From a virus (lineage: Duplodnaviria > Heunggongvirae > Uroviricota > Caudoviricetes): a DNA stretch of 22,569 bases. A program made the translations under genes and the position numbers. The stretch's first letter is position 1. Each line of letters opens with the position of its first letter. The notes under the pieces are model-generated. The model saw nothing but the letters and a program-made list of their open reading frames with translations, had not been told where the DNA came from and searched no databases. Of the stretch, positions 1,411 through 17,621 are shown piece after piece. The stretch lies in the IMG/VR virus record IMGVR_UViG_2778261128_000006; one strand, given 5' to 3'.

Positions 1411-1986
1411 TTACCTAACGTACTTAATTGTTAAACTTATAATTTTCCCAATTATTTCAACATCTTCTATCTTGCACTCGAAGGCTCTATTTCCACCCTC
1501 GACGAAGATTCTTCCACCGGGTAAACGAGTAATGTCACGGATCGTTATTTCGCCATCAATACTTATTACCCATTTACCATCACGTATATCATCAAATTCC
1601 TTATCACAAATAAATTCAGAATTATTATCTGTGATTACAAAAAGATTCTTGAATGCCGACGGTAGAAATTCTCTATCGAAAATATAAAAACCGTCTTCAC
1701 ACAAGGCCCCATCAGATAATACATATTTAGCAACTTCCATAGTATTTGTATTACCTGAAGTTTGCTTTGAACCATGCCCGGTTGTGAGCCAATTAAGCGA
1801 GGTGCCTGTTTCAAGGGCGCACTGGATTACCCATTCTGCTGGGAATGAGTCACGCATGTAGCGTGTGGCGAGTGTACTTTTAGAGATTCCTAAATGATCG
1901 CACAACGCCTGTCGAGTCTTGAATCCATAAGCTTCTACCATGCGCTCTATAGCGCCTCGTCCGCCTTTCTCCAAATTCATGGTCAC
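1411..1986 (-). CDS. cI: Phage 186-type CI immunity repressor (N-terminal HTH, C-terminal oligomerisation domain)
   Basis: 191 aa, about the length of 186 CI as I recall it; motifs EAYGF, CALETG..L.WLTTG, RLPGG...V.GG..FEC resemble 186 CI from memory; divergent from rightward early operon. Confidence 0.85.
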   Translation of the reverse strand: MTMNLEKGGRGAIERMVEAYGFKTRQALCDHLGISKSTLATRYMRDSFPAEWVIQCALETGTSLNWLTTGHGSKQTSGNTNTMEVAKYVLSDGALCEDGFYIFDREFLPSAFKNLFVITDNNSEFICDKEFDDIRDGKWVISIDGEITIRDITRLPGGRIFVEGGNRAFECKIEDVEIIGKIISLTIKYVR

Positions 1987-2359: not shown

Positions 2360-2869
2360 ATGTTTGATTACCAAGTTTCCAAACATCCACATTTTGATGA
2401 AGCCTGTCGTGCATTCGCATTGCGCCACAACCTGGTGCAACTGGCAGAACGTGCTGGCATGAATGTGCAGATTCTGCGGAACAAGTTGAACCCAGCGCAA
2501 CCTCATTTATTAACCGCACCAGAAATCTGGCTGCTTACCGATCTGACTGAAGATTCAACGCTGGTAGATGGTTTTCTGGCTCAGATTCACTGCCTGCCAT
2601 GCGTACCGATTAATGAGGTGGCAAAAGAGAAACTGCCACATTACGTCATGAGTGCAACCGCAGAGATCGGGCGTGTTGCTGCAGGTGCGGTATCTGGCGA
2701 TGTAAAAACCAGTGCAGGTCGTCGTGATGCTATCAGCAGCATTAACTCTGTAACACGACTGATGGCGTTGGCTGCTGTTTCATTGCAGGCCCGTTTACAG
2801 GCTAACCCTGCGATGGCGAGTGCAGTTGATACCGTGACTGGCCTCGGTGCTTCATTCGGTTTGCTGTGA
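2360..2869 (+). CDS. cII: CII-like phage regulatory protein
   Basis: 169 aa from ATG at 2360 (the track ORF starts earlier at a TTG), about the length of 186 CII as I recall it; position after apl; RBS-like AGAGG upstream. Confidence 0.7.
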
Positions 2870-2876
2870 GGTGCTT

Positions 2877-3077
2877 ATGCTGACGAAAGAACCATCATTT
2901 GCATCGCTGCTGGTAAAGCAAAGCCCGGCAATGCACTACGGTCACGGCTGGATCATGGGTGAGGATGGAAAACGCTGGCATCCGTGCCGTTCACAAGATG
3001 AATTGCTGGCAGAACTATCTACGAAAAAACGGGGGAACAAATGGCTATTGAAGGCGCTGCGGCGACTGTTCCATTAA
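2877..3077 (+). CDS. Hypothetical small early protein
   Basis: ATG at 2877 inside track ORF 2847-3077; tightly packed in early operon. Confidence 0.45.
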   Translation: MLTKEPSFASLLVKQSPAMHYGHGWIMGEDGKRWHPCRSQDELLAELSTKKRGNKWLLKALRRLFH

Positions 3078-3382
3078 GACCCGGTGAACGCCTGAATGGA
3101 CTTAATCATATTGCGGAGTTAAGGGCGAAAGTTTTTGGTTTGAATATTGAGTCAGAGCTTGAGCGGTTTATTAAAGATATGCGTGATCCACGGGATATCA
3201 ATAATGAACAAAATAAACGGGCACTGGCTGCCATATTCTTTATGGCAAAAATTCCAGCTGAACGTCATAGCATCAGCATTAATGAGCTGACCACTGACGA
3301 AAAGCGGGAGTTGATTAAAGCAATGAATCATTTTCGTGCAGTGGTGAGCTTATTTCCCAGACGGCTAACCATGCCGAATTAA
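3041..3382 (+). CDS. Hypothetical early protein (113 aa)
   Basis: ORF in early operon; overlaps previous gene end as is typical for phage operons. Confidence 0.5.
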   Translation: MAIEGAAATVPLRPGERLNGLNHIAELRAKVFGLNIESELERFIKDMRDPRDINNEQNKRALAAIFFMAKIPAERHSISINELTTDEKRELIKAMNHFRAVVSLFPRRLTMPN

Positions 3383-3449
3383 CCAACTAATGAAATTAAT
3401 GGCGTAAACCCGCCGGGCATCCCTTTATCTAAATTCAGGAGAATTGCTT

Positions 3450-3683
3450 ATGCGTAATATTGAAACCCTCACGACCAAAACCGGACCGGATGATGCAGGT
3501 CTTAATCTTTTACTGACAGAGGCTCGTCTGGAAGAACGCCGGGCAAGGGCTGAAGCAATGGCTGCTCGCCTCGATAGCCTGGCGTGTCATATCACCTCCC
3601 GCCAGCTAAACCACGTCGAAGCGGCAGAACTGCTGCGTGTGACTGCTGAAGCAATCCAGAACGAAGCGCAGGAGATCCACTGA
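3450..3683 (+). CDS. Hypothetical small early protein (about 77 aa)
   Basis: ATG at 3450 preceded by GGAG; stop overlaps start of next gene (ATGA at 3680-3686). Confidence 0.5.
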   Translation: MRNIETLTTKTGPDDAGLNLLLTEARLEERRARAEAMAARLDSLACHITSRQLNHVEAAELLRVTAEAIQNEAQEIH

Positions 3684-3910
3684 TGGCTGATGCAATGGAT
3701 CTCGTACAGCAGCGCGTTGAAGAAGAACGCCAACGCCATATCCGTGCTGCCCGTGCCAAAACGCCGGGCGTGTCCCGCGTGCTTTGCGTTGAGTGTGAAG
3801 CGCCAATTCCGCCAGCACGCCGCCGTGCCATTCCTGGAGTGCAGCTTTGCATTACCTGCCAGGAAATCGCAGAGCTGAAAGGCAAACATTACAACGGAGG
3901 TGCTGTATGA
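3683..3910 (+). CDS. TraR/DksA-family C4 zinc-finger protein
   Basis: 75 aa with CxxC...CxxC (CVECEAP...CITCQE), typical of phage TraR-like zinc finger proteins found upstream of gene A in P2-like phages. Confidence 0.65.
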   Translation: MADAMDLVQQRVEEERQRHIRAARAKTPGVSRVLCVECEAPIPPARRRAIPGVQLCITCQEIAELKGKHYNGGAV

Positions 3911-4764
3911 GCACCATCCTGAAATGGGCGGGTAATAAAACCGCCATTATGTCCGAACTGAAAAAATACCTTCCTGCTGGCCCGCGACTGGTTGAACCTT
4001 TCGCGGGTTCTTGTGCTGTGATGATGGCGACGGATTACCCCAGCTATCTGGTTGCGGATATTAATCCTGATTTAATCAACCTCTATAAAAAGATTGCCGC
4101 TGATTGCGAAGCGTTTATATCTCGTGCCAAAGTTTTATTTGAGGAAGCAAACAGTGAGCTGGCTTATTACAACATAAGACAGGAGTTTAATTACTCAACT
4201 GAAATTACTGATTTCATGAAGGCGATATATTTCCTGTATCTCAATCGTCACGGTTACCGTGGTTTATGTCGCTATAACAAGAGCGGGTATTTCAACATTC
4301 CCTACGGTAATTATAAAAATCCGTATTTCCCTGAAAAAGAAATTCGCGCATTTGCAGAGAAAGCCCAGCGGGCAACGTTTATCTGCGCGAGCTTTGATGA
4401 AACGCTGGCGATGCTGCAGGTGGGGGATGTGGTGTATTGCGATCCGCCGTATGACGGTACGTTTTCCGGCTATCACACTGATGGTTTCACTGAAGATGAC
4501 CAGTATCACCTGGCATCCATTCTTGAACATCGGTCATCAGAAGGACATCCGGTCATTGTTTCTAACAATGACACATCCCTGATTCGTTCGCTGTATCGCA
4601 ATTTTACTCACCACTATATCAAGGCAAAACGCAGCATCGGCGTGTCAGCTGGCGAGGGTAAATCTGCAACAGAAATCATTGCTGTTTCCGGGCCGAGCTG
4701 CTGGTTGGGATTTGATCCTTCGCGTGGCGTGGATAGTTCTGCCGTGTACGGAGTGTGTGTATGA
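3907..4764 (+). CDS. dam: DNA N6-adenine methyltransferase (Dam-like, D12 class)
   Basis: N-terminal KWAGNK...FAGS AdoMet-binding motif and catalytic DPPY motif ([10 protein letters not shown]); ATG at 3907 after GGAGG. Confidence 0.85.
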
Positions 4765-7175
4765 GTCATGACGATATGAACTATTGCAGCGGCTTTAACG
4801 AGGCCGCCGCAGCATTTTCATGGAACGGCTCGAAAAAGGCCATTAACCCTTATCTGGACCCGGCGGAAGTTGCGCCGGAGTCTGCACTTTCAAACCTGAT
4901 CACTCTGTACGCTGCCGATAACGAGCAGGAACAACTGCGCCGCGAGGCACTGAGTGAGCAGGTCTGGGAGCGTTATTTCTTTAATGAATCCCGTGATCCT
5001 GTCCAGCGCGAAATGGAGCAGGATAAGCTCATTAGCCGGGCAAAGCTGGCGCATGAGCAGCAGCGTTTTAATCCGGACATGGTCATTCTGGCGGACGTAA
5101 ACGCCCAGCCTTCCCATATCAGCAAGCCGCTGATGCAACGTATTGAATACTTCAGCAGCCTGGGCAGGCCAAAGGCTTATTCCCGCTATTTGCGTGAGAC
5201 GATTAAGCCATGTCTGGAGCGACTGGATTGTGTACGTGACAGTCAGCTATCTGTTTCTTTCCGTTTTATGGCAAGCCATCAAGGGCTGGAGGGTCTGCTG
5301 ATCCTGCCTGAAATGAGCCAGGATCAGGTGAAACGCCTGTCCACCCTGGTAGCAGCGCATATGAGCATGTGTCTTGAGGACGCTTGTGGTGATTTGTATG
5401 CCACCGATGACGTTAAGCCAGAAGAAATCCGCAAGACATGGGAAAAGGTGGCAGCGGAAACCCTGCGTCTGGATGTTATCCCGCCTGCGTTTGAGAAACT
5501 TCGTCGGAAAATAAACCGCCGCAAACCAGTGCTCTATGAACTCATCCCGGGTTCGCTGGCGCGTATGTTGTGTGCCGACTGGTGGTATCGGAAATTATGG
5601 AAGATGCGTTGCGAATGGCGGGAAGAGCAGTTGCGTGCTGTCTGCCTGGTCAGCAAAAAAGCATCCCCCTATGTCAGCTATGAAGCCGTGATGCATAAAC
5701 GTGAGCAGCGCCGTAAGTCGCTGGAGTTTTTTCGTTCTCATGAACTGGTGAACGAAGACGGCGACACGCTGGATATGGAAGATGTGGTAAACGCCAGCAG
5801 CAGCAACCCGGCGCATCGCCGCAATGAGATGATGGCCTGTGTTAAAGGTCTGGAGCTTATCGCGGAAATGCGCAGTGACTGTGCCGTTTTCTACACTATC
5901 ACCTGTCCGTCGCGTTTCCATTCCACGCTCAATAACGGCAGACCAAACCCGACCTGGACAAACGCGACGGTAAGACAAAGTAGCGATTATCTGGTCGGCA
6001 TGTTTGCTGCATTTCGTAAGGCTATGCATAAAGCCGAGTTGCGCTGGTATGGCGTGCGGGTAGCTGAGCCGCATCATGACGGTACTGTGCACTGGCATCT
6101 CATGTGTTTCATGCGTAAAAAAGACCGCCGCGCCATCACTGCATTACTGCGTAAGTTTGCCATCCGTGAAGACCGCGAGGAGCTGGGCAATAACACGGGA
6201 CCACGCTTTAAGTCTGAGCTGATAAACCCGCGCAAAGGTACGCCAACAAGCTATATCGCGAAATACATCAGTAAGAACATTGACGGGCGTGGTCTGGCTG
6301 GGGAGATCAGCAAGGAAACGGGTAAATCCCTGCGTGATAACGCTGAATACGTTAATGCCTGGGCGTCTCTGCATCGTGTTCAGCAATTCCGCTTCTTTGG
6401 CATTCCGGGGCGTCAGGCTTACCGTGAACTGCGATTGCTGGCTGGTCAGGCGGCAAGGCAACAGGGTGACAAAAAAGCAGGTGCGCCGGTACTGGATAAC
6501 CCGCGTCTTGATGCAATCCTGGCTGCTGCTGATGCTGGTTGTTTTGCCACCTACATCATGAAGCAGGGCGGCGTACTGGTTCCCCGCAAATATCACCTCA
6601 TCAGAACTGCTTATGAAATCAACGAAGAACCGACCGCATATGGCGATCACGGTATTCGTATTTATGGCATCTGGTCACCCATTGCAGAGGGCAAGATCTG
6701 CACTCATGCGGTGAAGTGGAAAATGGTTCGTAAGGCCGTTGACGTTCAGGAGGCGGCAGCCGACCAGGGCGCTTGCGCCCCTTGGACTCGTGGCAATAAC
6801 TGTCCCCTTGCTGAAAATTTGAACCAACAAGGGAAAGACAAATCAGCTGATGGGGACTCCAGAACGGATATTACCCGTATGAATGACAAGGAGTTGCACA
6901 ATTACCTGCACAGTATGAGCAAAAAAGAGCGCCGGGAACTGGCTGCAAGGTTACGCCAGGTGAAACCGAAACGGCGTAAAGACTACAAACAGCGAATTAC
7001 AGACCATCAGCGACAGCAGCTCGTCTATGAACTGAAGTCCAGGGGATTTGATGGCAGCGAGAAAGAAGTCGATTTGCTCCTTCGCGGCGGCAGTATTCCG
7101 TCAGGAGCAGGCCTGCGTATCTTCTATCGGAACCAGCGTCTGAAGGAAGATGATAAGTGGCGGAACCTGTATTAA
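4755..7175 (+). CDS. A: P2 gpA-type replication initiation endonuclease
   Basis: About 800-aa ORF at the position of gene A in P2/186; rolling-circle initiator-like region around [10 protein letters not shown] with downstream tyrosines (YIAKYISK); start may be ATG 4755 or 4761. Confidence 0.85.
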
Positions 7176-7267
7176 TTACGCGGGTTGACAATTCGTGCTC
7201 TTAATAATACCAGGCATATCAGGCCGATGAACGTAAAAAAACGTTTTACATCAGTAAGATTATTATA

Positions 7268-7287
7268 TACTGTAAATATAAACAGTG
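7268..7287. promoter_or_regulatory. LexA SOS box (CTGT-N8-ACAG)
   Basis: TACTGTAAATATAAACAGTG: CTGT at 7270-7273, 8-nt AT-rich spacer, ACAG at 7282-7285; a second partial half-site (GTATACAG) follows; just upstream of strong RBS AGGAGG and ATG 7328. Confidence 0.6.
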
Positions 7288-7327
7288 GTTATGTATACAG
7301 TATTGTTTTGGTGTCATAGGAGGAAAG

Positions 7328-7516
7328 ATGCAGGACTATTTTTTGGAGTCTTTGAAGCTCCAGCGCATTGATTTTTTTCTTAAGCTTGTAGCGGCTAGTG
7401 AGTGTAGTGATGAAGAGAAGGGGCTGGCTCTGCAGTGGGTTTCTGAATTGACTGATGAACTCATGGCAAAAATCAGAAGCCACGAATACAACCGCTCAAT
7501 GGATGTCATCAGCTGA
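7328..7516 (+). CDS. Small protein downstream of LexA box; possible N-terminal part of a Tum-like antirepressor
   Basis: 62-aa ORF with strong RBS (TAGGAGGAAAG ATG); overlaps in another frame with the upstream extension of the DinI-like ORF. Confidence 0.4.
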   Translation: MQDYFLESLKLQRIDFFLKLVAASECSDEEKGLALQWVSELTDELMAKIRSHEYNRSMDVIS

Positions 7517-7526
7517 GGTGACTTTT

Positions 7527-7760
7527 ATGCGCATTGAAATAATGATCGATAAAGAGCAGAAGATTAGCCAGTCTACCCTGGACGCCCTTGAATCCGAGCT
7601 TTACCGCAATCTGCGCCCCCTGTATCCCAAAACGGTAATTCGCATTCGCAAAGGTAGCTCTAACGGTGTGGAACTAACCGGACTGCAACTGGATGAAGAA
7701 AGAAAACAAGTGATGAAAATTATGCAGAAGGTGTGGGAGGACGACAGCTGGCTGCATTAA
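7527..7760 (+). CDS. DinI-like protein (DNA-damage-inducible protein I family)
   Basis: 77 aa starting MRIEIMIDKEQ...; resembles DinI (MRIEVTIAK... with C-terminal W-E-D-W acidic tail) from memory; under LexA box. Confidence 0.7.
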   Translation: MRIEIMIDKEQKISQSTLDALESELYRNLRPLYPKTVIRIRKGSSNGVELTGLQLDEERKQVMKIMQKVWEDDSWLH

Positions 7761-7952
7761 GAAATGTTGCCCCCAGGAGGATTCATTCTGATGGGGGCTA
7801 GTTTGGGCAATGAGTGAAATAAGGCGTAAGGTGGGCGGTTATTTTGATAAGTGATCGTCCGCTTTGTGTCAGAAGCAGAAGTGGGAGTGTCTGAGACTCT
7901 CTAAAAGTTGATGATTCACTTACAAAACCATTTTCCTGATGGATGCTTACAC

Positions 7953-8288
7953 TTACGAATGATCATTCTGTTTAGTCTTCATGAGAAAATCCCGAATCTT
8001 TGCCAAGTTTGAATTTTCGGGGATTGAATCCATGTACGGATCACGCTCAAACACTAATTGCTCAGATTCAACGAAAGCCTGCCACTCTACTGGGTCTAGC
8101 TCAAATCCCATTGCTGTCATATCACTTTCATCTTCCCCCTCGATCCAGTGGACTAAATAAAACAATTCATCATCAGGAGAATCATCCTCACCATCAACAA
8201 TATCAACATCGGTTACAGTGATACGTAGGGTGGGATCGATTTTTGAGACATAAATTCCTAACTGTGGTATAGGGGGAATATTGTTCAT
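7953..8288 (-). CDS. Highly acidic hypothetical protein (111 aa)
   Basis: Minus-strand ORF with AAGGAG RBS 7 nt upstream of ATG; D/E-rich (stretches DGEDDSPDDE, EGEDESD); divergent from retron operon. Confidence 0.6.
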   Translation of the reverse strand: MNNIPPIPQLGIYVSKIDPTLRITVTDVDIVDGEDDSPDDELFYLVHWIEGEDESDMTAMGFELDPVEWQAFVESEQLVFERDPYMDSIPENSNLAKIRDFLMKTKQNDHS

Positions 8289-8760
8289 GGAAACTCCTTT
8301 TATTGGTGTTTGCTATTTGAATAAAAATACGCCAAACAGAGTGTTAACTGTGAATATGGAAAGAATCGTTGTAAGTACCCCGCTTAGGTGTCCCATTCTA
8401 TTTTAGAGGTTCTCGTGCATATGGATTATGTTATCTGAAAGTTAACTTCCGCTTCCCGTTCACAGCGAACATTCATCTTTGTAAACCCGTATGATCCGTT
8501 TTTCAAGTGGCCATTCAGATACGGATTTTCACTTCCTTGACAGTGCATGACTATGCTGCATGAAATCGCATGATCGATTGAGGATCGTCTTTGCTCAGAT
8601 CCGCCAGAACTGGCGGGCTTTTGCTCATGTTATGCATGTGCATGAAAACCACTGCATAAAGCGGGCAGGCGTGGCGGGGATACGAGCGCGCGCCATGTGG
8701 TATGGAGATTGGATCTATTCATAACTTGATGTATAAAGTAGAAAAAAAAGCGGGGAGATT

Positions 8761-9684
8761 ATGAATAAAAAATTTACCGATGAGCAGCAACAACAGCTTA
8801 TAGGACATCTCACAAAGAAAGGCTTCTATCGAGGAGCTAATATTAAAATAACCATTTTTCTATGTGGTGGTGACGTTGCTAATCATCAATCTTGGCGTCA
8901 TCAATTATCACAATTTTTAGCAAAGTTCAGTGATGTTGATATATTTTATCCAGAAGATCTATTTGATGATCTTTTGGCTGGTCAAGGGCAGCATAGCCTT
9001 TTAAGTTTAGAAAATATTCTGGCTGAAGCTGTCGATGTAATAATTTTATTTCCTGAAAGTCCGGGGTCTTTCACAGAGCTTGGTGCGTTCTCTAATAATG
9101 AAAACTTAAGGAGAAAGTTGATTTGCATTCAAGATGCAAAATTTAAATCAAAACGTAGCTTTATTAACTATGGTCCTGTTCGCCTGTTGCGTAAGTTTAA
9201 TTCAAAATCTGTTTTGCGTTGTAGTTCAAATGAACTAAAAGAAATGTGTGATTCATCTATTGATGTTGCCAGAAAATTACGATTATATAAAAAATTAATG
9301 GCATCTATTAAGAAGGTTAGGAAAGAAAATAAAGTATCAAAAGATATTGGAAATATATTATACGCAGAGCGGTTTCTATTGCCTTGTATCTATTTACTGG
9401 ATAGTGTCAACTACCGCACACTGTGTGAACTAGCTTTTAAAGCGATAAAGCAAGATGATGTTTTATCTAAAATTATTGTTAGATCCGTTGTTTCTCGTCT
9501 AATAAATGAACGAAAAATACTTCAAATGACTGATGGTTATCAGGTCACTGCTTTGGGGGCTAGCTATGTTAGGAGCGTCTTTGATAGAAAGACACTTGAC
9601 CGATTGCGGCTTGAGATTATGAATTTTGAAAACCGTAGAAAATCAACATTTAACTATGATAAGATTCCGTATGCGCACCCTTAG
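8761..9684 (+). CDS. Retron effector, nucleoside 2-deoxyribosyltransferase-like (NDT) protein with C-terminal basic domain
   Basis: 307-aa AT-rich ORF directly upstream of msr-msd and RT; Rossmann-like N-terminal region (KITIFLCGG ... VIILFPESPGSFTELG); its 3' end overlaps the a1 repeat; matches the Retron-Eco1 effector as I recall it. Confidence 0.8.
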   Translation: MNKKFTDEQQQQLIGHLTKKGFYRGANIKITIFLCGGDVANHQSWRHQLSQFLAKFSDVDIFYPEDLFDDLLAGQGQHSLLSLENILAEAVDVIILFPESPGSFTELGAFSNNENLRRKLICIQDAKFKSKRSFINYGPVRLLRKFNSKSVLRCSSNELKEMCDSSIDVARKLRLYKKLMASIKKVRKENKVSKDIGNILYAERFLLPCIYLLDSVNYRTLCELAFKAIKQDDVLSKIIVRSVVSRLINERKILQMTDGYQVTALGASYVRSVFDRKTLDRLRLEIMNFENRRKSTFNYDKIPYAHP

Positions 9685-9840
9685 CGAGAGGTTTATCATT
9701 AAGGTCAACCTCTGGATGTTGTTTCGGCATCCTGCATTGAATCTGAGTTACTGTCTGTTTTCCTTGTTGGAACGGAGAGCATCGCCTGATGCTCTCCGAG
9801 CCAACCAGGAAACCCGTTTTTTCTGACGTAAGGGTGCGCA
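9672..9840 (+). ncRNA. msr-msd: Retron msr-msd non-coding RNA (Ec86/Eco1-type) flanked by a1/a2 inverted repeats
   Basis: a1 TGCGCACCCTTA at 9672-9683 and a2 TAAGGGTGCGCA at 9829-9840 are perfect inverted repeats; long msd hairpin 9760-9811 (24-bp arms around GCCT loop); sequence matches the Ec86 ncRNA as I remember it from retron editing constructs. Confidence 0.85.
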
Positions 9841-9846
9841 ACTTTC

Positions 9847-10809
9847 ATGAAATCCGCTGAATATTTGAACACTTTTAGATTGAGAAATCTCGGCCTACCT
9901 GTCATGAACAATTTGCATGACATGTCTAAGGCGACTCGCATATCTGTTGAAACACTTCGGTTGTTAATCTATACAGCTGATTTTCGCTATAGGATCTACA
10001 CTGTAGAAAAGAAAGGCCCAGAGAAGAGAATGAGAACCATTTACCAACCTTCTCGAGAACTTAAAGCCTTACAAGGATGGGTTCTACGTAACATTTTAGA
10101 TAAACTGTCGTCATCTCCTTTTTCTATTGGATTTGAAAAGCACCAATCTATTTTGAATAATGCTACCCCGCATATTGGGGCAAACTTTATACTGAATATT
10201 GATTTGGAGGATTTTTTCCCAAGTTTAACTGCTAACAAAGTTTTTGGAGTGTTCCATTCTCTTGGTTATAATCGACTAATATCTTCAGTTTTGACAAAAA
10301 TATGTTGTTATAAAAATCTGCTACCACAAGGTGCTCCATCATCACCTAAATTAGCTAATCTAATATGTTCTAAACTTGATTATCGTATTCAGGGTTATGC
10401 AGGTAGTCGGGGCTTGATATATACGAGATATGCCGATGATCTCACCTTATCTGCACAGTCTATGAAAAAGGTTGTTAAAGCACGTGATTTTTTATTTTCT
10501 ATAATCCCAAGTGAAGGATTGGTTATTAACTCAAAAAAAACTTGTATTAGTGGGCCTCGTAGTCAGAGGAAAGTTACAGGTTTAGTTATTTCACAAGAGA
10601 AAGTTGGGATAGGTAGAGAAAAATATAAAGAAATTAGAGCAAAGATACATCATATATTTTGCGGTAAGTCTTCTGAGATAGAACACGTTAGGGGATGGTT
10701 GTCATTTATTTTAAGTGTGGATTCAAAAAGCCATAGGAGATTAATAACTTATATTAGCAAATTAGAAAAAAAATATGGAAAGAACCCTTTAAATAAAGCG
10801 AAGACCTAA
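9847..10809 (+). CDS. ret: Retron reverse transcriptase (Ec86/Eco1-type, 320 aa)
   Basis: RT motifs including YADD (RYADDLTLS) and retron-specific VTG (RKVTGLVI); length and sequence match Ec86 RT from memory. Confidence 0.95.
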   Translation: MKSAEYLNTFRLRNLGLPVMNNLHDMSKATRISVETLRLLIYTADFRYRIYTVEKKGPEKRMRTIYQPSRELKALQGWVLRNILDKLSSSPFSIGFEKHQSILNNATPHIGANFILNIDLEDFFPSLTANKVFGVFHSLGYNRLISSVLTKICCYKNLLPQGAPSSPKLANLICSKLDYRIQGYAGSRGLIYTRYADDLTLSAQSMKKVVKARDFLFSIIPSEGLVINSKKTCISGPRSQRKVTGLVISQEKVGIGREKYKEIRAKIHHIFCGKSSEIEHVRGWLSFILSVDSKSHRRLITYISKLEKKYGKNPLNKAKT

Positions 10810-10822
10810 TGGTCTTCGTTTT
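10799..10822. terminator. Bidirectional hairpin terminator between retron RT and portal gene Q
   Basis: CGAAGACC / TAAT / GGTCTTCG perfect 8-bp stem spanning the RT stop codon, followed by TTTT on plus strand and T-rich run on the minus strand. Confidence 0.5.
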
Positions 10823-10826
10823 AAAA

Positions 10827-11855
10827 CTAAAGCTCATAGGTTGAAAAATTGAGCACTTCTTCGTCCAACCAGTTATTTAGTTCCTGCAATCGTTTCTGCA
10901 GGGGCATCAATTCGTTTCTTACGAATACCTTGCTAGCCTTCTCCACATCCCCAAACCCCCCGACATTATTAGGCATAATTCCCATCATTTGCGGCGGCAC
11001 GCGGTGTGCCGCCATCATGTCATCACGGCTCACGTTCTTGATATTCAGAAACTCATCCTTCGCTGTGACTTCTGACAACGGGATAATCTGAAGTCCGTCT
11101 TTTTTACCATTAGGCGAGTACATAAACAGGTTGCGGAAGTTGCCAGGGCCTTTGGCACTTTTCATCGCATTGCGGAGGTTGTTCACATCTTCCTGGTTCT
11201 GCGCGGCATCGGTCATGTACATGATGAAGCCTGCATGACTACCGTTAATGTAATACTTTCGGCGGAACAGCGTGGCGGACTCGTTGAGCAGGGCGGATGG
11301 GATGGCAGAAAGATAGCCGGGCAGGCCGTAGATCTCCTGGTTGATGTCCGGTTCCATCAGATGAAAAATGCTGCCTTTCGTGAACTGATACGGCTGCGTG
11401 GTCATGCCGTATTGCACAAACCAGTAGGTATCTAGGTCTAATCCGCGTCGGGTGTATTTTGCCAGCGCAGGCTCAAGGGCGATAACTTCACCGAATCGGT
11501 TCGTGCGTTTCTCCAGGTAGGCGTTACCAAAAACCAGATAGTCCTGCACAAAACGTGAAAACGCCTGCTGGCTGAGCAGCGGGTGAGGGATGTAGGTGCT
11601 GGTCAGAATGTTGCACTTTACTGCAATCGGTGAACTGTGGTGTACGGCGGCGCGGAATGTTCGCGCCAGTCCGTCAAAACTTACGGGTGGCTCATACCAG
11701 CGGTCCATCTTTACGCATTCCACATAGTCCAGTAATTCGCGGCGGTCCAGAACAGGAACGGGATCACCGAAGCTGAATGCTTCGGCTGAAGTTTGGTTTT
11801 TATGCTGGATCTGGTTCGTCGCCGCAGCGCGGTTTTTCTTACTCTTTCCCATCAA
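10827..11855 (-). CDS. Q: Phage portal protein (P2 gpQ-like)
   Basis: 342 aa, minus strand, directly downstream of terminase gene in a P-Q operon; size and order as in P2. Confidence 0.8.
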   Translation of the reverse strand: MMGKSKKNRAAATNQIQHKNQTSAEAFSFGDPVPVLDRRELLDYVECVKMDRWYEPPVSFDGLARTFRAAVHHSSPIAVKCNILTSTYIPHPLLSQQAFSRFVQDYLVFGNAYLEKRTNRFGEVIALEPALAKYTRRGLDLDTYWFVQYGMTTQPYQFTKGSIFHLMEPDINQEIYGLPGYLSAIPSALLNESATLFRRKYYINGSHAGFIMYMTDAAQNQEDVNNLRNAMKSAKGPGNFRNLFMYSPNGKKDGLQIIPLSEVTAKDEFLNIKNVSRDDMMAAHRVPPQMMGIMPNNVGGFGDVEKASKVFVRNELMPLQKRLQELNNWLDEEVLNFSTYEL

Positions 11856-16895: not shown

Positions 16896-17621
16896 ATGAA
16901 CGCACAACTAACCGAAATCATGCGCCTTATCACCAATCTGATCCGCATAGGTGTAGTCACCGAAGTGGACCGGGAAAACTGGCTTTGTCGGGTGAAAACG
17001 GGCGACCTTGAAACCAACTGGATCAGCTGGCTGACGCTGCGCGCGGGTAATGCCCGCACATGGTGGCGACCATCGGAAGGTGAGCAGGTGGTGCTGCTGA
17101 GTCTGGGCGGCAATCTGGAGACTGCCTTTGCGCTGCCCGCTGTCTATTCGAATCAGTTCGCACCACCGTCGACGTCGGCGGACGCCTGCGTGACAGAACA
17201 TCCTGACGGTGGCTGGTTTGAATACGAACCCGCCACCGGGCGCTGGTATGTCAGGGGCATCAAATCAATGGTCATTGAGGCCGCTGATAACATCACCATG
17301 AAAACCAGTGAGTTTGTACTGGAGGCTGACCGCACGCGCATTAACAGCGAAGTGGTGATCAATGGTGGCGTTATTCCTTCACCCACGCATGAAGAACTTA
17401 TTGAAATTTCTGAGTCAAAAAGACAGCTATTAATTAATCAGGCCAACGAATACATGAACAGTAAACAATGGCCCGGTAAAGCCGCTATTGGTCGTCTGAA
17501 AGGCGAGGAACTGGCGCAATATAATTCGTGGCTGGATTATCTGGACGCACTGGAGCTGGTTGATACCTCCAGTGTGCCAGATATTGAATGGCCTACGCCT
17601 CCGGCAGTTCAGGCCAGATGA
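16896..17621 (+). pseudogene. Chimeric ORF: N-terminus of baseplate spike gpV fused to C-terminus of a tail fibre assembly protein (deletion junction)
   Basis: Starts MNAQLTEIMRLITNLIRIGVV...RTWW.PS.GEQV like P2 gpV; ends ...WLDYLDALELVDTSSVPDIEWPTPP like Tfa C-termini (compare the convergent Tfa at 17593-18195). Confidence 0.65.

Follow-up and report, generated by a model that had tools for sequence, protein, structure and literature searches.

The stretch between positions 7268 and 7760 raises the question of whether it holds a LexA-controlled antirepressor gene of the phage 186 type that was broken in two by a frameshift, or whether a short gene followed by a DinI-like gene is what such a prophage normally carries. 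Two further questions concern what the products would do, and whether the neighbouring retron would answer to DNA damage as well. By the window we mean the whole stretch of DNA analysed, 22,569 nucleotides (22.6 kb) in length. The module is a near-identical copy of the split tum operon already described for Fels-2, and as such it is already known.

Genomic context of the module

The window matched E. coli B strains, REL606 and ATCC 11303 among them, at 100% identity. It is a defective Fels-2/186-like (Peduoviridae) prophage of E. coli B with the retron Ec86/Eco1. Its genes follow the order integrase, 186-type CI, CII, DUF5347, Dam methylase, replicase A, the tum module, a 111-aa minus-strand gene, a type II-A retron (NDT effector and RT), portal and terminase. 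The succession int, CI, CII, Dam, A, LexA boxes with tumA and tumB, cargo and portal matches that of Fels-2 and 186. Replication gene A precedes the module, the genome has a CI/CII switch of the 186 type, and the gene order is identical in Fels-2, PsP3 and 186. Capsid genes were missing from the E. coli B prophage, and within the window baseplate and tail-fibre genes were missing as well, so that production of particles by this prophage is impossible.

Three phages served as the main points of comparison. Fels-2 (STM2728 and STM2727, tagged STM2726.1.Fels2 in the phage record) shares with the window the double LexA operator, a 10-nt spacer between the two genes and the position after gene A, and its module was ~97% identical to that of the window at the nucleotide level, promoter included. 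The two differ in host (Salmonella LT2 versus E. coli B) and in the downstream cargo, which is wholly different and in the window consists of the retron island; in addition, the E. coli B prophage is defective. In PsP3, too, the SOS operon follows gene A, is preceded by a LexA box and is split into two genes, tumA and tumB, but TumA belongs to another subfamily (phrog_1993, versus phrog_698 in the window), the LexA box is single, and the two genes lie in the same frame with TAG and 3 nt between them. Phage 186 resembles the window in its LexA-repressed promoter with the -10 TACTGT inside the box, in the same genomic position and in the CI/CII/Apl switch. It differs in having a fused Tum of 146 aa whose internal starts give rise to truncated, DinI-like products, a single LexA box, and orf97 as the next gene in the operon.

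Promoter and operator

The near-consensus SOS box, the strong ribosome-binding site, the 62-aa ORF and the DinI-like ORF behind it were all found where the initial annotation had placed them. The elements of the promoter region are as follows.

7245-7250, plus strand: -35 hexamer TTTACA of a p95-like SOS promoter, read from the sequence and assigned by analogy with p95 of 186.
7268-7287, plus strand: LexA (SOS) box 1, TACTGTAAATATAAACAGTG, with 17 of 20 consensus matches; its first six bases are the -10 hexamer TACTGT (7268-7273).
7283-7302, plus strand: LexA box 2, CAGTGGTTATGTATACAGTA, overlapping box 1, with a perfect right half and a degenerate left half (GTG for CTG).

Box 1 was the sole site in the 22.6-kb window with three mismatches or fewer from the 20-mer LexA consensus, while 100 shuffles gave none, and it was also the sole exact CTGT-N8-ACAG across the window. 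Its CTGT and ACAG were unchanged in all nine of the nine aligned promoters. The TTTACA of the -35 was kept in Fels-2, SEN8, ST437phi4.1, MLG42 and ESSI-2. The layout of -35, spacer and -10 within the LexA box copies p95 as annotated in the 186 record, where TTCACA and TACTGT are separated by 18 nt, versus 17 nt between TTTACA and TACTGT in the window. No sigma-70-like promoter was called by the consensus scan of 7100-8900, the -10 TACTGT being too weak, and it is by analogy with the annotated p95 of 186 that the promoter is assigned.

The second LexA box, overlapping the first, had been overlooked in the initial annotation. In a 16-mer reading the two boxes lie at 7270-7285 and 7285-7300 and have one base in common. 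Box 2 was kept in Fels-2, SEN8, ST437phi4.1 and MLG42 despite diverging flanks, and was absent from 186, PsP3 and ESSI-2, which carry a single box. A blastn search of plasmids with a 58-nt promoter query returned small mobilizable Col-type plasmids and the Yersinia plasmid pPCP1, with 85-87.5% identity over ~47 nt, and the matches sit directly 5' of the colicin R gene (cra) and the pesticin gene (pst). On pColR, the second box 5' of the colicin R gene matched box 2 at 19 of 20 positions, and its pesticin counterpart on pPCP1 came close; the base-for-base alignment pairs TACTGTACATAAAACCAGTGGTTATGTGTACAGTATT from pColR with TACTGTAAATATAAACAGTGGTTATGTATACAGTATT from the window. The locus has the layout of a colicin-type double SOS operator: two 16-mers share a single base, the left half of the second is degenerate, and both align with the cra and pst promoters. 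The overlapping boxes common to the window, pColR cra and pPCP1 pst can be written as CTGT-N8-(A/C)CAG-TGGTTAT-N-T-N-TACAG. Unlike the window, the plasmid operators serve bacteriocin genes on small plasmids, and their -35 spacing and flanks are unrelated. The likeness would fit shared ancestry as well as convergence under the constraint of LexA binding.

The double boxes of colicin genes are bound by two LexA dimers, and basal expression from them is undetectable (PMC2994835). By analogy, LexA would be expected to occupy both boxes at the tum operator too. A wider proposal is put forward tentatively and is, taken as a whole, rather doubtful: on the colicin-type double LexA operator that Fels-2-type tum promoters carry, occupation of both boxes would set derepression to the near-zero basal level reported for colicin SOS boxes (PMC2994835); the operator module may have passed between Col-type plasmids and P2-like phages at some time; and the intact module of E. 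coli B could still switch early genes (Dam methylase, A replicase) upon damage, or act in trans on other elements. The double operator may account for tight, all-or-none induction in Fels-2-type phages. As an observation, the colicin-like double SOS operator is a small addition to a known module.

Identity of the two gene products

The coding part of the module comprises two ORFs, each with its own ribosome-binding site.

7318-7323, plus strand: Shine-Dalgarno AGGAGG of tumA, read from the sequence, 4 nt before the ATG at 7328 and kept in all Fels-2-type relatives.
7328-7516, plus strand: tumA-like gene (ORF1), 62 aa, predicted antirepressor with a two-helix hairpin; 97% identity to Fels-2 STM2728; phrog_698.
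7515-7521, plus strand: Shine-Dalgarno GAGGTGA of tumB, read from the sequence, overlapping the tumA stop TGA (7514-7516).
7527-7760, plus strand: tumB, DinI-family gene, 77 aa; Pfam DinI PF06183 with E 6.6e-23.

The second product was readily placed. TumB scored 81.3 bits against Pfam DinI PF06183 (cut-off 24.2), covering profile positions 1-63 of 63, and was identical in 77 of 77 residues to the DinI-family protein of Fels-2, 78% identical to PsP3 TumB and 41% identical to residues 71-145 of 186 Tum, i.e., its C-terminal half. With E. coli DinI (PDB 1GHH) it aligned from end to end at E 2.7e-6, including the C-terminal W and the acidic segment. The likeness to E. coli DinI (PDB 1GHH, 7YWA) is only a distant one; TumB differs in being encoded by a phage, downstream of an antirepressor gene, and its binding to RecA is putative. 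The start of tumB is the ATG at 7527, the one used by the Fels-2 and BL21 annotations too.

The first product had to be placed by more sensitive comparisons. ORF1 was identical to Fels-2 STM2728 in 60 of 62 residues, and pairwise BLASTP of ORF1 with 186 Tum and with PsP3 TumA gave zero alignments. Searches of Pfam, PADLOC and PDB sequences with ORF1 returned nothing significant. When 27 diverse relatives of ORF1 were compared by hhalign with 17 relatives of the N-terminus of 186 Tum, the alignment of the two families covered residues 1-46 in each, initial methionine included, with a probability of 96.5% and E 7.9e-10. The same comparison of the ORF1 family with the single sequence of PsP3 TumA was weak (probability 7%) and was given no weight. 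In PHROG, ORF1 matched phrog_698 at E 5.9e-38 and phrog_1993 at E 0.002, the N-terminus of 186 Tum matched phrog_1993 at E 1.5e-23 and phrog_698 at E 5.9e-6, and PsP3 TumA matched phrog_1993 at E 2.7e-32. These cross-matches link ORF1, the N-terminus of 186 Tum and PsP3 TumA at the profile level, independently of hhalign. ORF1 is accordingly described here as a remote, profile-level homologue of the N-terminal (non-DinI) half of 186 Tum, on the basis of 46 profile columns in a small helical protein. An AlphaFold2 model of TumA (pLDDT 87.7) has helices at residues 2-23 and 28-61, with a conserved Cys26 in the turn.

The description of the region as a LexA-box-controlled Tum/DinI-like module was borne out by the p95-like promoter with its box, by the 41% identity of the DinI-like ORF to Tum and by the profile homology of ORF1. 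Likeness to 186 Tum had been suggested for both ORFs: the DinI-like ORF had it at the level of direct alignment (residues 71-145), while ORF1 failed to align by BLASTP and aligned by profiles.

The N-terminal half also occurs on its own. Many stand-alone homologues of the N-terminus of 186-type Tum, 63-78 aa long, are named "Tum protein". Cronobacter phage ESSI-2 has a LexA box and an unannotated TumA-like ORF, without a DinI gene, an arrangement which, as read from the genome, agrees with a central role of TumA in induction and an accessory one of TumB.

Proposed induction pathway and the CI repressor

With good confidence we read the region as an SOS operon in which a Fels-2/186-like prophage naturally keeps two separate genes, and we propose a sequence of events that runs from LexA over TumA and CI to TumB. 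The presumed target of TumA lies at the other end of the early region.

1411-1986, minus strand: 186-type CI immunity repressor, presumed TumA target; Pfam Phage_CI_repr E 2.8e-33 and Phage_CI_C E 8.7e-27; ORF intact, 191 aa; the target role is taken from 186 (PMC3121763).

In an undamaged cell, LexA would sit on the double colicin-type operator, over the p95-like promoter at its -10 hexamer and start region, and keep the operon silent. Upon DNA damage, RecA-stimulated self-cleavage of LexA would release a single transcript with tumA and tumB. TumA, as a 62-aa helical hairpin, would bind the 186-type CI of the prophage and block its binding to the operator, and inactivation of CI would derepress the early lytic operon (apl, cII and onwards to dam and A). 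TumB (77 aa) would bind RecA filaments and tune the SOS signal. In E. coli B the outcome would be derepression of early genes at most, with no production of phage, because the prophage has lost its capsid and tail genes. DNA-damaging treatment of E. coli B strains could nevertheless derepress early genes of this defective prophage.

Several steps of this pathway have been described for relatives. Tum of 186 is LexA-repressed and inhibits DNA binding by CI (186 record annotation; PMC3121763). In the PsP3 record, tumA is annotated as required for UV induction of the prophage, and STM2727 of Fels-2 was induced 5.5-14.8-fold by the mutagen MX (PMC2225428). Action of TumA on the CI of the prophage, and specifically on the CI N-terminal domain, is suggested here by analogy. 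In comparison with the CI of the window, Fels-2-type phages had 68-76% identity in the N-terminal domain, versus 39-48% for 186 and PsP3; in the C-terminal domain, identity was 27-33% for all phages compared. There is thus a hint that the N-terminal domain of CI tracks the type of TumA and might be the target domain, in a comparison of six phages that is confounded by phylogeny. A specific pairing of TumA with CI is not obvious, since between E. coli B and Fels-2 TumA is 97% identical but CI only 40% overall.

The same numbers bear on another reading of ORF1, as a conserved SOS-induced small protein with a role other than inactivating the CI of its own prophage, e.g., as a partner or regulator of TumB/RecA, or as an antirepressor directed in trans at other prophages. 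We regard this as unlikely. It would agree with the conservation of TumA at 84-97% among Fels-2-type phages, versus 40-47% for CI, and with the label 'unknown function' that all libraries give to the ORF1 family. Trans-acting antirepressors are also documented in Salmonella prophages, and the sole statement that a split TumA is an antirepressor is a personal communication on PsP3, cited second-hand, which concerns a different TumA subfamily (PMC3121763). However, ORF1 has profile homology to just the non-DinI half of 186 Tum and shares with tum both the genomic position and the LexA control. The retention of LexA box and TumA without DinI in ESSI-2 is what would be expected of an essential induction factor, and the N-terminal domain of CI is well kept where TumA is kept. 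Lemire et al., citing Bunny et al., call Fels-2 closely analogous to the antirepressor-regulated phage 186 (PMC3121763). We retain TumA as the predicted antirepressor of the CI of its own prophage.

The downstream region and the retron

The initial annotation had suggested that the retron neighbourhood might also be SOS-responsive. Immediately behind tumB there is one element that could affect transcription.

7769-7798, plus strand: G+C-rich hairpin (GCCCCCA...TGGGGGC) with TAGTTTGGG behind it, perhaps a partial terminator, at the position of t95a of 186; computed fold, weak assignment.

The hairpin is located where the 186 record annotates t95a. Its folding energy did not differ significantly from that of shuffles (z = -1.16), the T tract is weak, and it was passed over by the terminator scan. 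A convergent gene of 111 aa (7953-8288, minus strand) separates tumB from the retron, and a terminator-like site on the plus strand (8600-8617) stands before the retron effector gene. Scans of the window with the 20-mer consensus and with CTGT-N8-ACAG found no LexA box near the retron, and an Rfam gathering scan of 7100-11000 returned nothing, retron msr/msd included. The downstream cargo differs among relatives, and homology with Fels-2 stops at the tumB stop codon; the retron island is therefore seen as cargo that was exchanged separately.

Read-through from the tum promoter could in principle drive SOS-dependent expression of the retron Ec86/Eco1 island, which has its genes on the same strand, 1 kb downstream. 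The hairpin after tumB resembles a weak terminator, the p95 transcript of 186 partly passes t95a into orf97 (186 record), and in Fels-2 the next gene, STM2726, is grouped with STM2727 and STM2728 as one damage-responsive operon (PMC2225428). Such read-through is nonetheless improbable, given that the convergent gene and the plus-strand terminator-like site intervene, the retron has no LexA box nearby, and the island was exchanged independently of the module. The suggested SOS response of the retron neighbourhood is thus not upheld, with hairpin, convergent gene and terminator-like site lying between and the retron lacking a LexA box of its own, and the findings on the tum module raise no new question on retrons. 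As a side result, orf97 was dropped as a conserved member of the operon: STM2726 of Fels-2 is dissimilar to orf97 of 186, though both are 243 aa long.

Two genes or a frameshifted one

In the literature, tum has been described as split in Fels-2 and PsP3, with the upstream gene of PsP3 as the antirepressor (PMC3121763, Lemire et al. citing Bunny et al.). The reading frame of the DinI-like ORF was confirmed to be open upstream to an ATG at 7455 and to overlap ORF1 in the +1 frame. Three sets of comparisons bear on what this overlap means.

Firstly, the distance from the stop of the first ORF to the ATG of the second was compared across six relatives. It was 10 nt in the window and Fels-2, 11 nt in SEN8 and ST437phi4.1, 12 nt in MLG42 and 3 nt in PsP3, so that all three relative frames occur: the second gene is offset by +1 in the window and Fels-2, by +2 in SEN8 and ST437phi4.1, and by 0 (a stop lying in frame) in MLG42 and PsP3. 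A purine-rich equivalent of the Shine-Dalgarno sequence is present in the 10-12 nt spacer of the relatives. The open stretch of the DinI frame 5' of its ATG is 75 nt in the window, and 42, 12 and 3 nt in relatives.

Secondly, both ORFs gave dN/dS values of 0.06-0.11 against SEN8, ST437phi4.1 and MLG42 (0.07-0.11 for tumB in these three divergent comparisons, with zero amino-acid changes versus Fels-2). Such values mark strong purifying selection on both tum genes; the relaxed selection of pseudogene fragments was not observed. In the overlap, 7455-7513, 8-11 of 14-18 substitutions fell on third codon positions of ORF1, which are second positions in the DinI frame; this argues that 7455-7513 codes in the ORF1 frame only.

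Thirdly, when 1.84 billion representatives were searched exhaustively with HMMER, ORF1 had 67 relatives. Almost all of these were stand-alone proteins 52-77 aa long, and a C-terminal extension of DinI length was seen in none of the 67. A full-length homologue of ORF1 is encoded in 66 phage records. All relatives examined were split, none of the close ones having an uninterrupted ORF. The locus itself has two ORFs with separate ribosome-binding sites in place of one polypeptide of ~146 aa, and it therefore belongs to the split TumA/TumB form and not to the fused form of 186. Judged by these comparisons, the two-gene state is the conserved normal state and not a lesion.

Two ways of joining the frames were weighed against this. 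Programmed +1 ribosomal frameshifting in the overlap might add a fused TumA-TumB beside the two separate products; the frames do overlap by 62 nt in the window and Fels-2, and 186 shows that such a fusion can function. We consider it very improbable, as an offset of +1, +2 or 0 across the relatives leaves no single conserved recoding mechanism, no selection was visible on the DinI frame 5' of 7527, and no slippery motif was seen in the overlap in an unsystematic reading by eye. A conserved programmed frameshift was thus rejected on the varying spacers and frames and on the evolution of the overlap in the ORF1 frame only.

The weakest explanation is that of the initial annotation, a frameshifted antirepressor, in which a one-base frameshift in 7455-7516 turned a once-fused 186-type tum (~145 aa) into a pseudogene or two accidental fragments. 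The joining itself works on paper, for a 1-nt shift within 7455-7516 would give a protein of ~143-144 aa, close to the ~145 that had been proposed; the real start of tumB is, however, the ATG at 7527. In its favour are the single 146-aa Tum of 186 with both halves, the 75 nt of open DinI frame overlapping ORF1, and some fused, partial Tum-DinI proteins in databases (P0216, P0230). It is hardly credible and was rejected, as the identical split occurs in the viable, inducible Fels-2 and PsP3 and in at least 60 other phage records, one base restores no common ancestral frame among spacers of 10, 11, 12 and 3 nt, the open DinI frame 5' of the ATG is down to 42, 12 and 3 nt in the relatives, both ORFs are under purifying selection with the overlap evolving in the ORF1 frame only, tumB has a Shine-Dalgarno sequence and ATG of its own, and fused members are absent among the 67 representatives of the ORF1 family.

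The two-gene operon also recurs in the host species. The module was present in 1083 of 5426 complete E. coli genomes (~20%), and the two-gene annotation was found in 11 of 11 full-length E. coli matches among the matches listed. This corrects a misreading at the level of annotation: the 62-aa "hypothetical protein" that stands beside a "DinI-like family protein" in ~20% of complete E. coli genomes, BL21 and REL606 included, is the TumA half of a split Tum antirepressor operon, and not a damaged gene.

Start codons and upstream elements of tumA homologues

Homologues of TumA, the 62-aa product encoded at 7328-7516 on the plus strand, are N-terminally extended to 84-106 aa in many public gene calls, as in the database protein P0001 and in the CDS of 97-98 aa in phages 500465-1 and ST437phi4.1. 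The starts of these extended calls are probably wrong, since the coding sequence would run across the promoter and the LexA boxes.

The region 1437-1700 of the Cronobacter phage ESSI-2 record also contains a TumA-like ORF, which is not annotated there. It has a GTG start at 1501 and 41% identity to TumA, and is preceded by TTTACA-17-TACTGT (-35 hexamer, spacer in nt, -10 hexamer) and by just one LexA box, TACTGTTTATATGTACAGTG; downstream of the ORF there is no DinI gene. On the 5' side of the -35 hexamer of p95, the LexA-repressed SOS promoter of phage 186, an element CATG(T/A)ACATACAG is conserved between 186 (4985-5000) and PsP3 (1205-1225), and its sequence resembles a LexA half-site.

The tumA/tumB junction

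At 7505-7522 a hairpin, GTCATCagctgaGGTGAC, covers the tumA stop codon and the Shine-Dalgarno sequence of the DinI-family gene tumB, and is directly followed by TTTT-ATG. Translation of tumB could thereby be coupled to termination of tumA. The hairpin is shared by Fels-2 and was not evident in SEN8 or MLG42.

In the phage 500465-1 record (4483-4720), TumA carries an internally frame-shifted stretch, ERGWLCSGVSEL replacing EKGLALQWVSEL, and 1 nt is deleted immediately 3' of the tumB ATG. These changes suggest that the 500465-1 sequence contains errors or has decayed here.

Prophage structure and cargo island

Comparison of genomes showed that the window retains a 3.36-kb early segment (2697-6053; cII 3' part, DUF5347, Dam methylase and gene A 5' part), which is lost from BL21(DE3), whereas it lacks, at 17372/17373, 3,759 bp present in both BL21(DE3) and REL606, with the baseplate V/W/J/I and tail-fibre H genes. 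This exact structure was found in no complete E. coli genome of the collection compared.

The tumB stop codon marks the exact start of a variable cargo island, which includes a type II-A retron, Ec86/Eco1:

7527-7760, plus strand, tumB
7761-10826, cargo island
within the island, minus strand, 111-aa cargo gene (phrog_17127, function label 'unknown')
8761-9684, NDT effector of the retron
9847-10809, RT of the retron

In Fels-2, phage 500465-1, SEN8 and ST437phi4.1 the position of the island is instead occupied by unrelated genes, the cargo of phage 500465-1 being a TIR protein.
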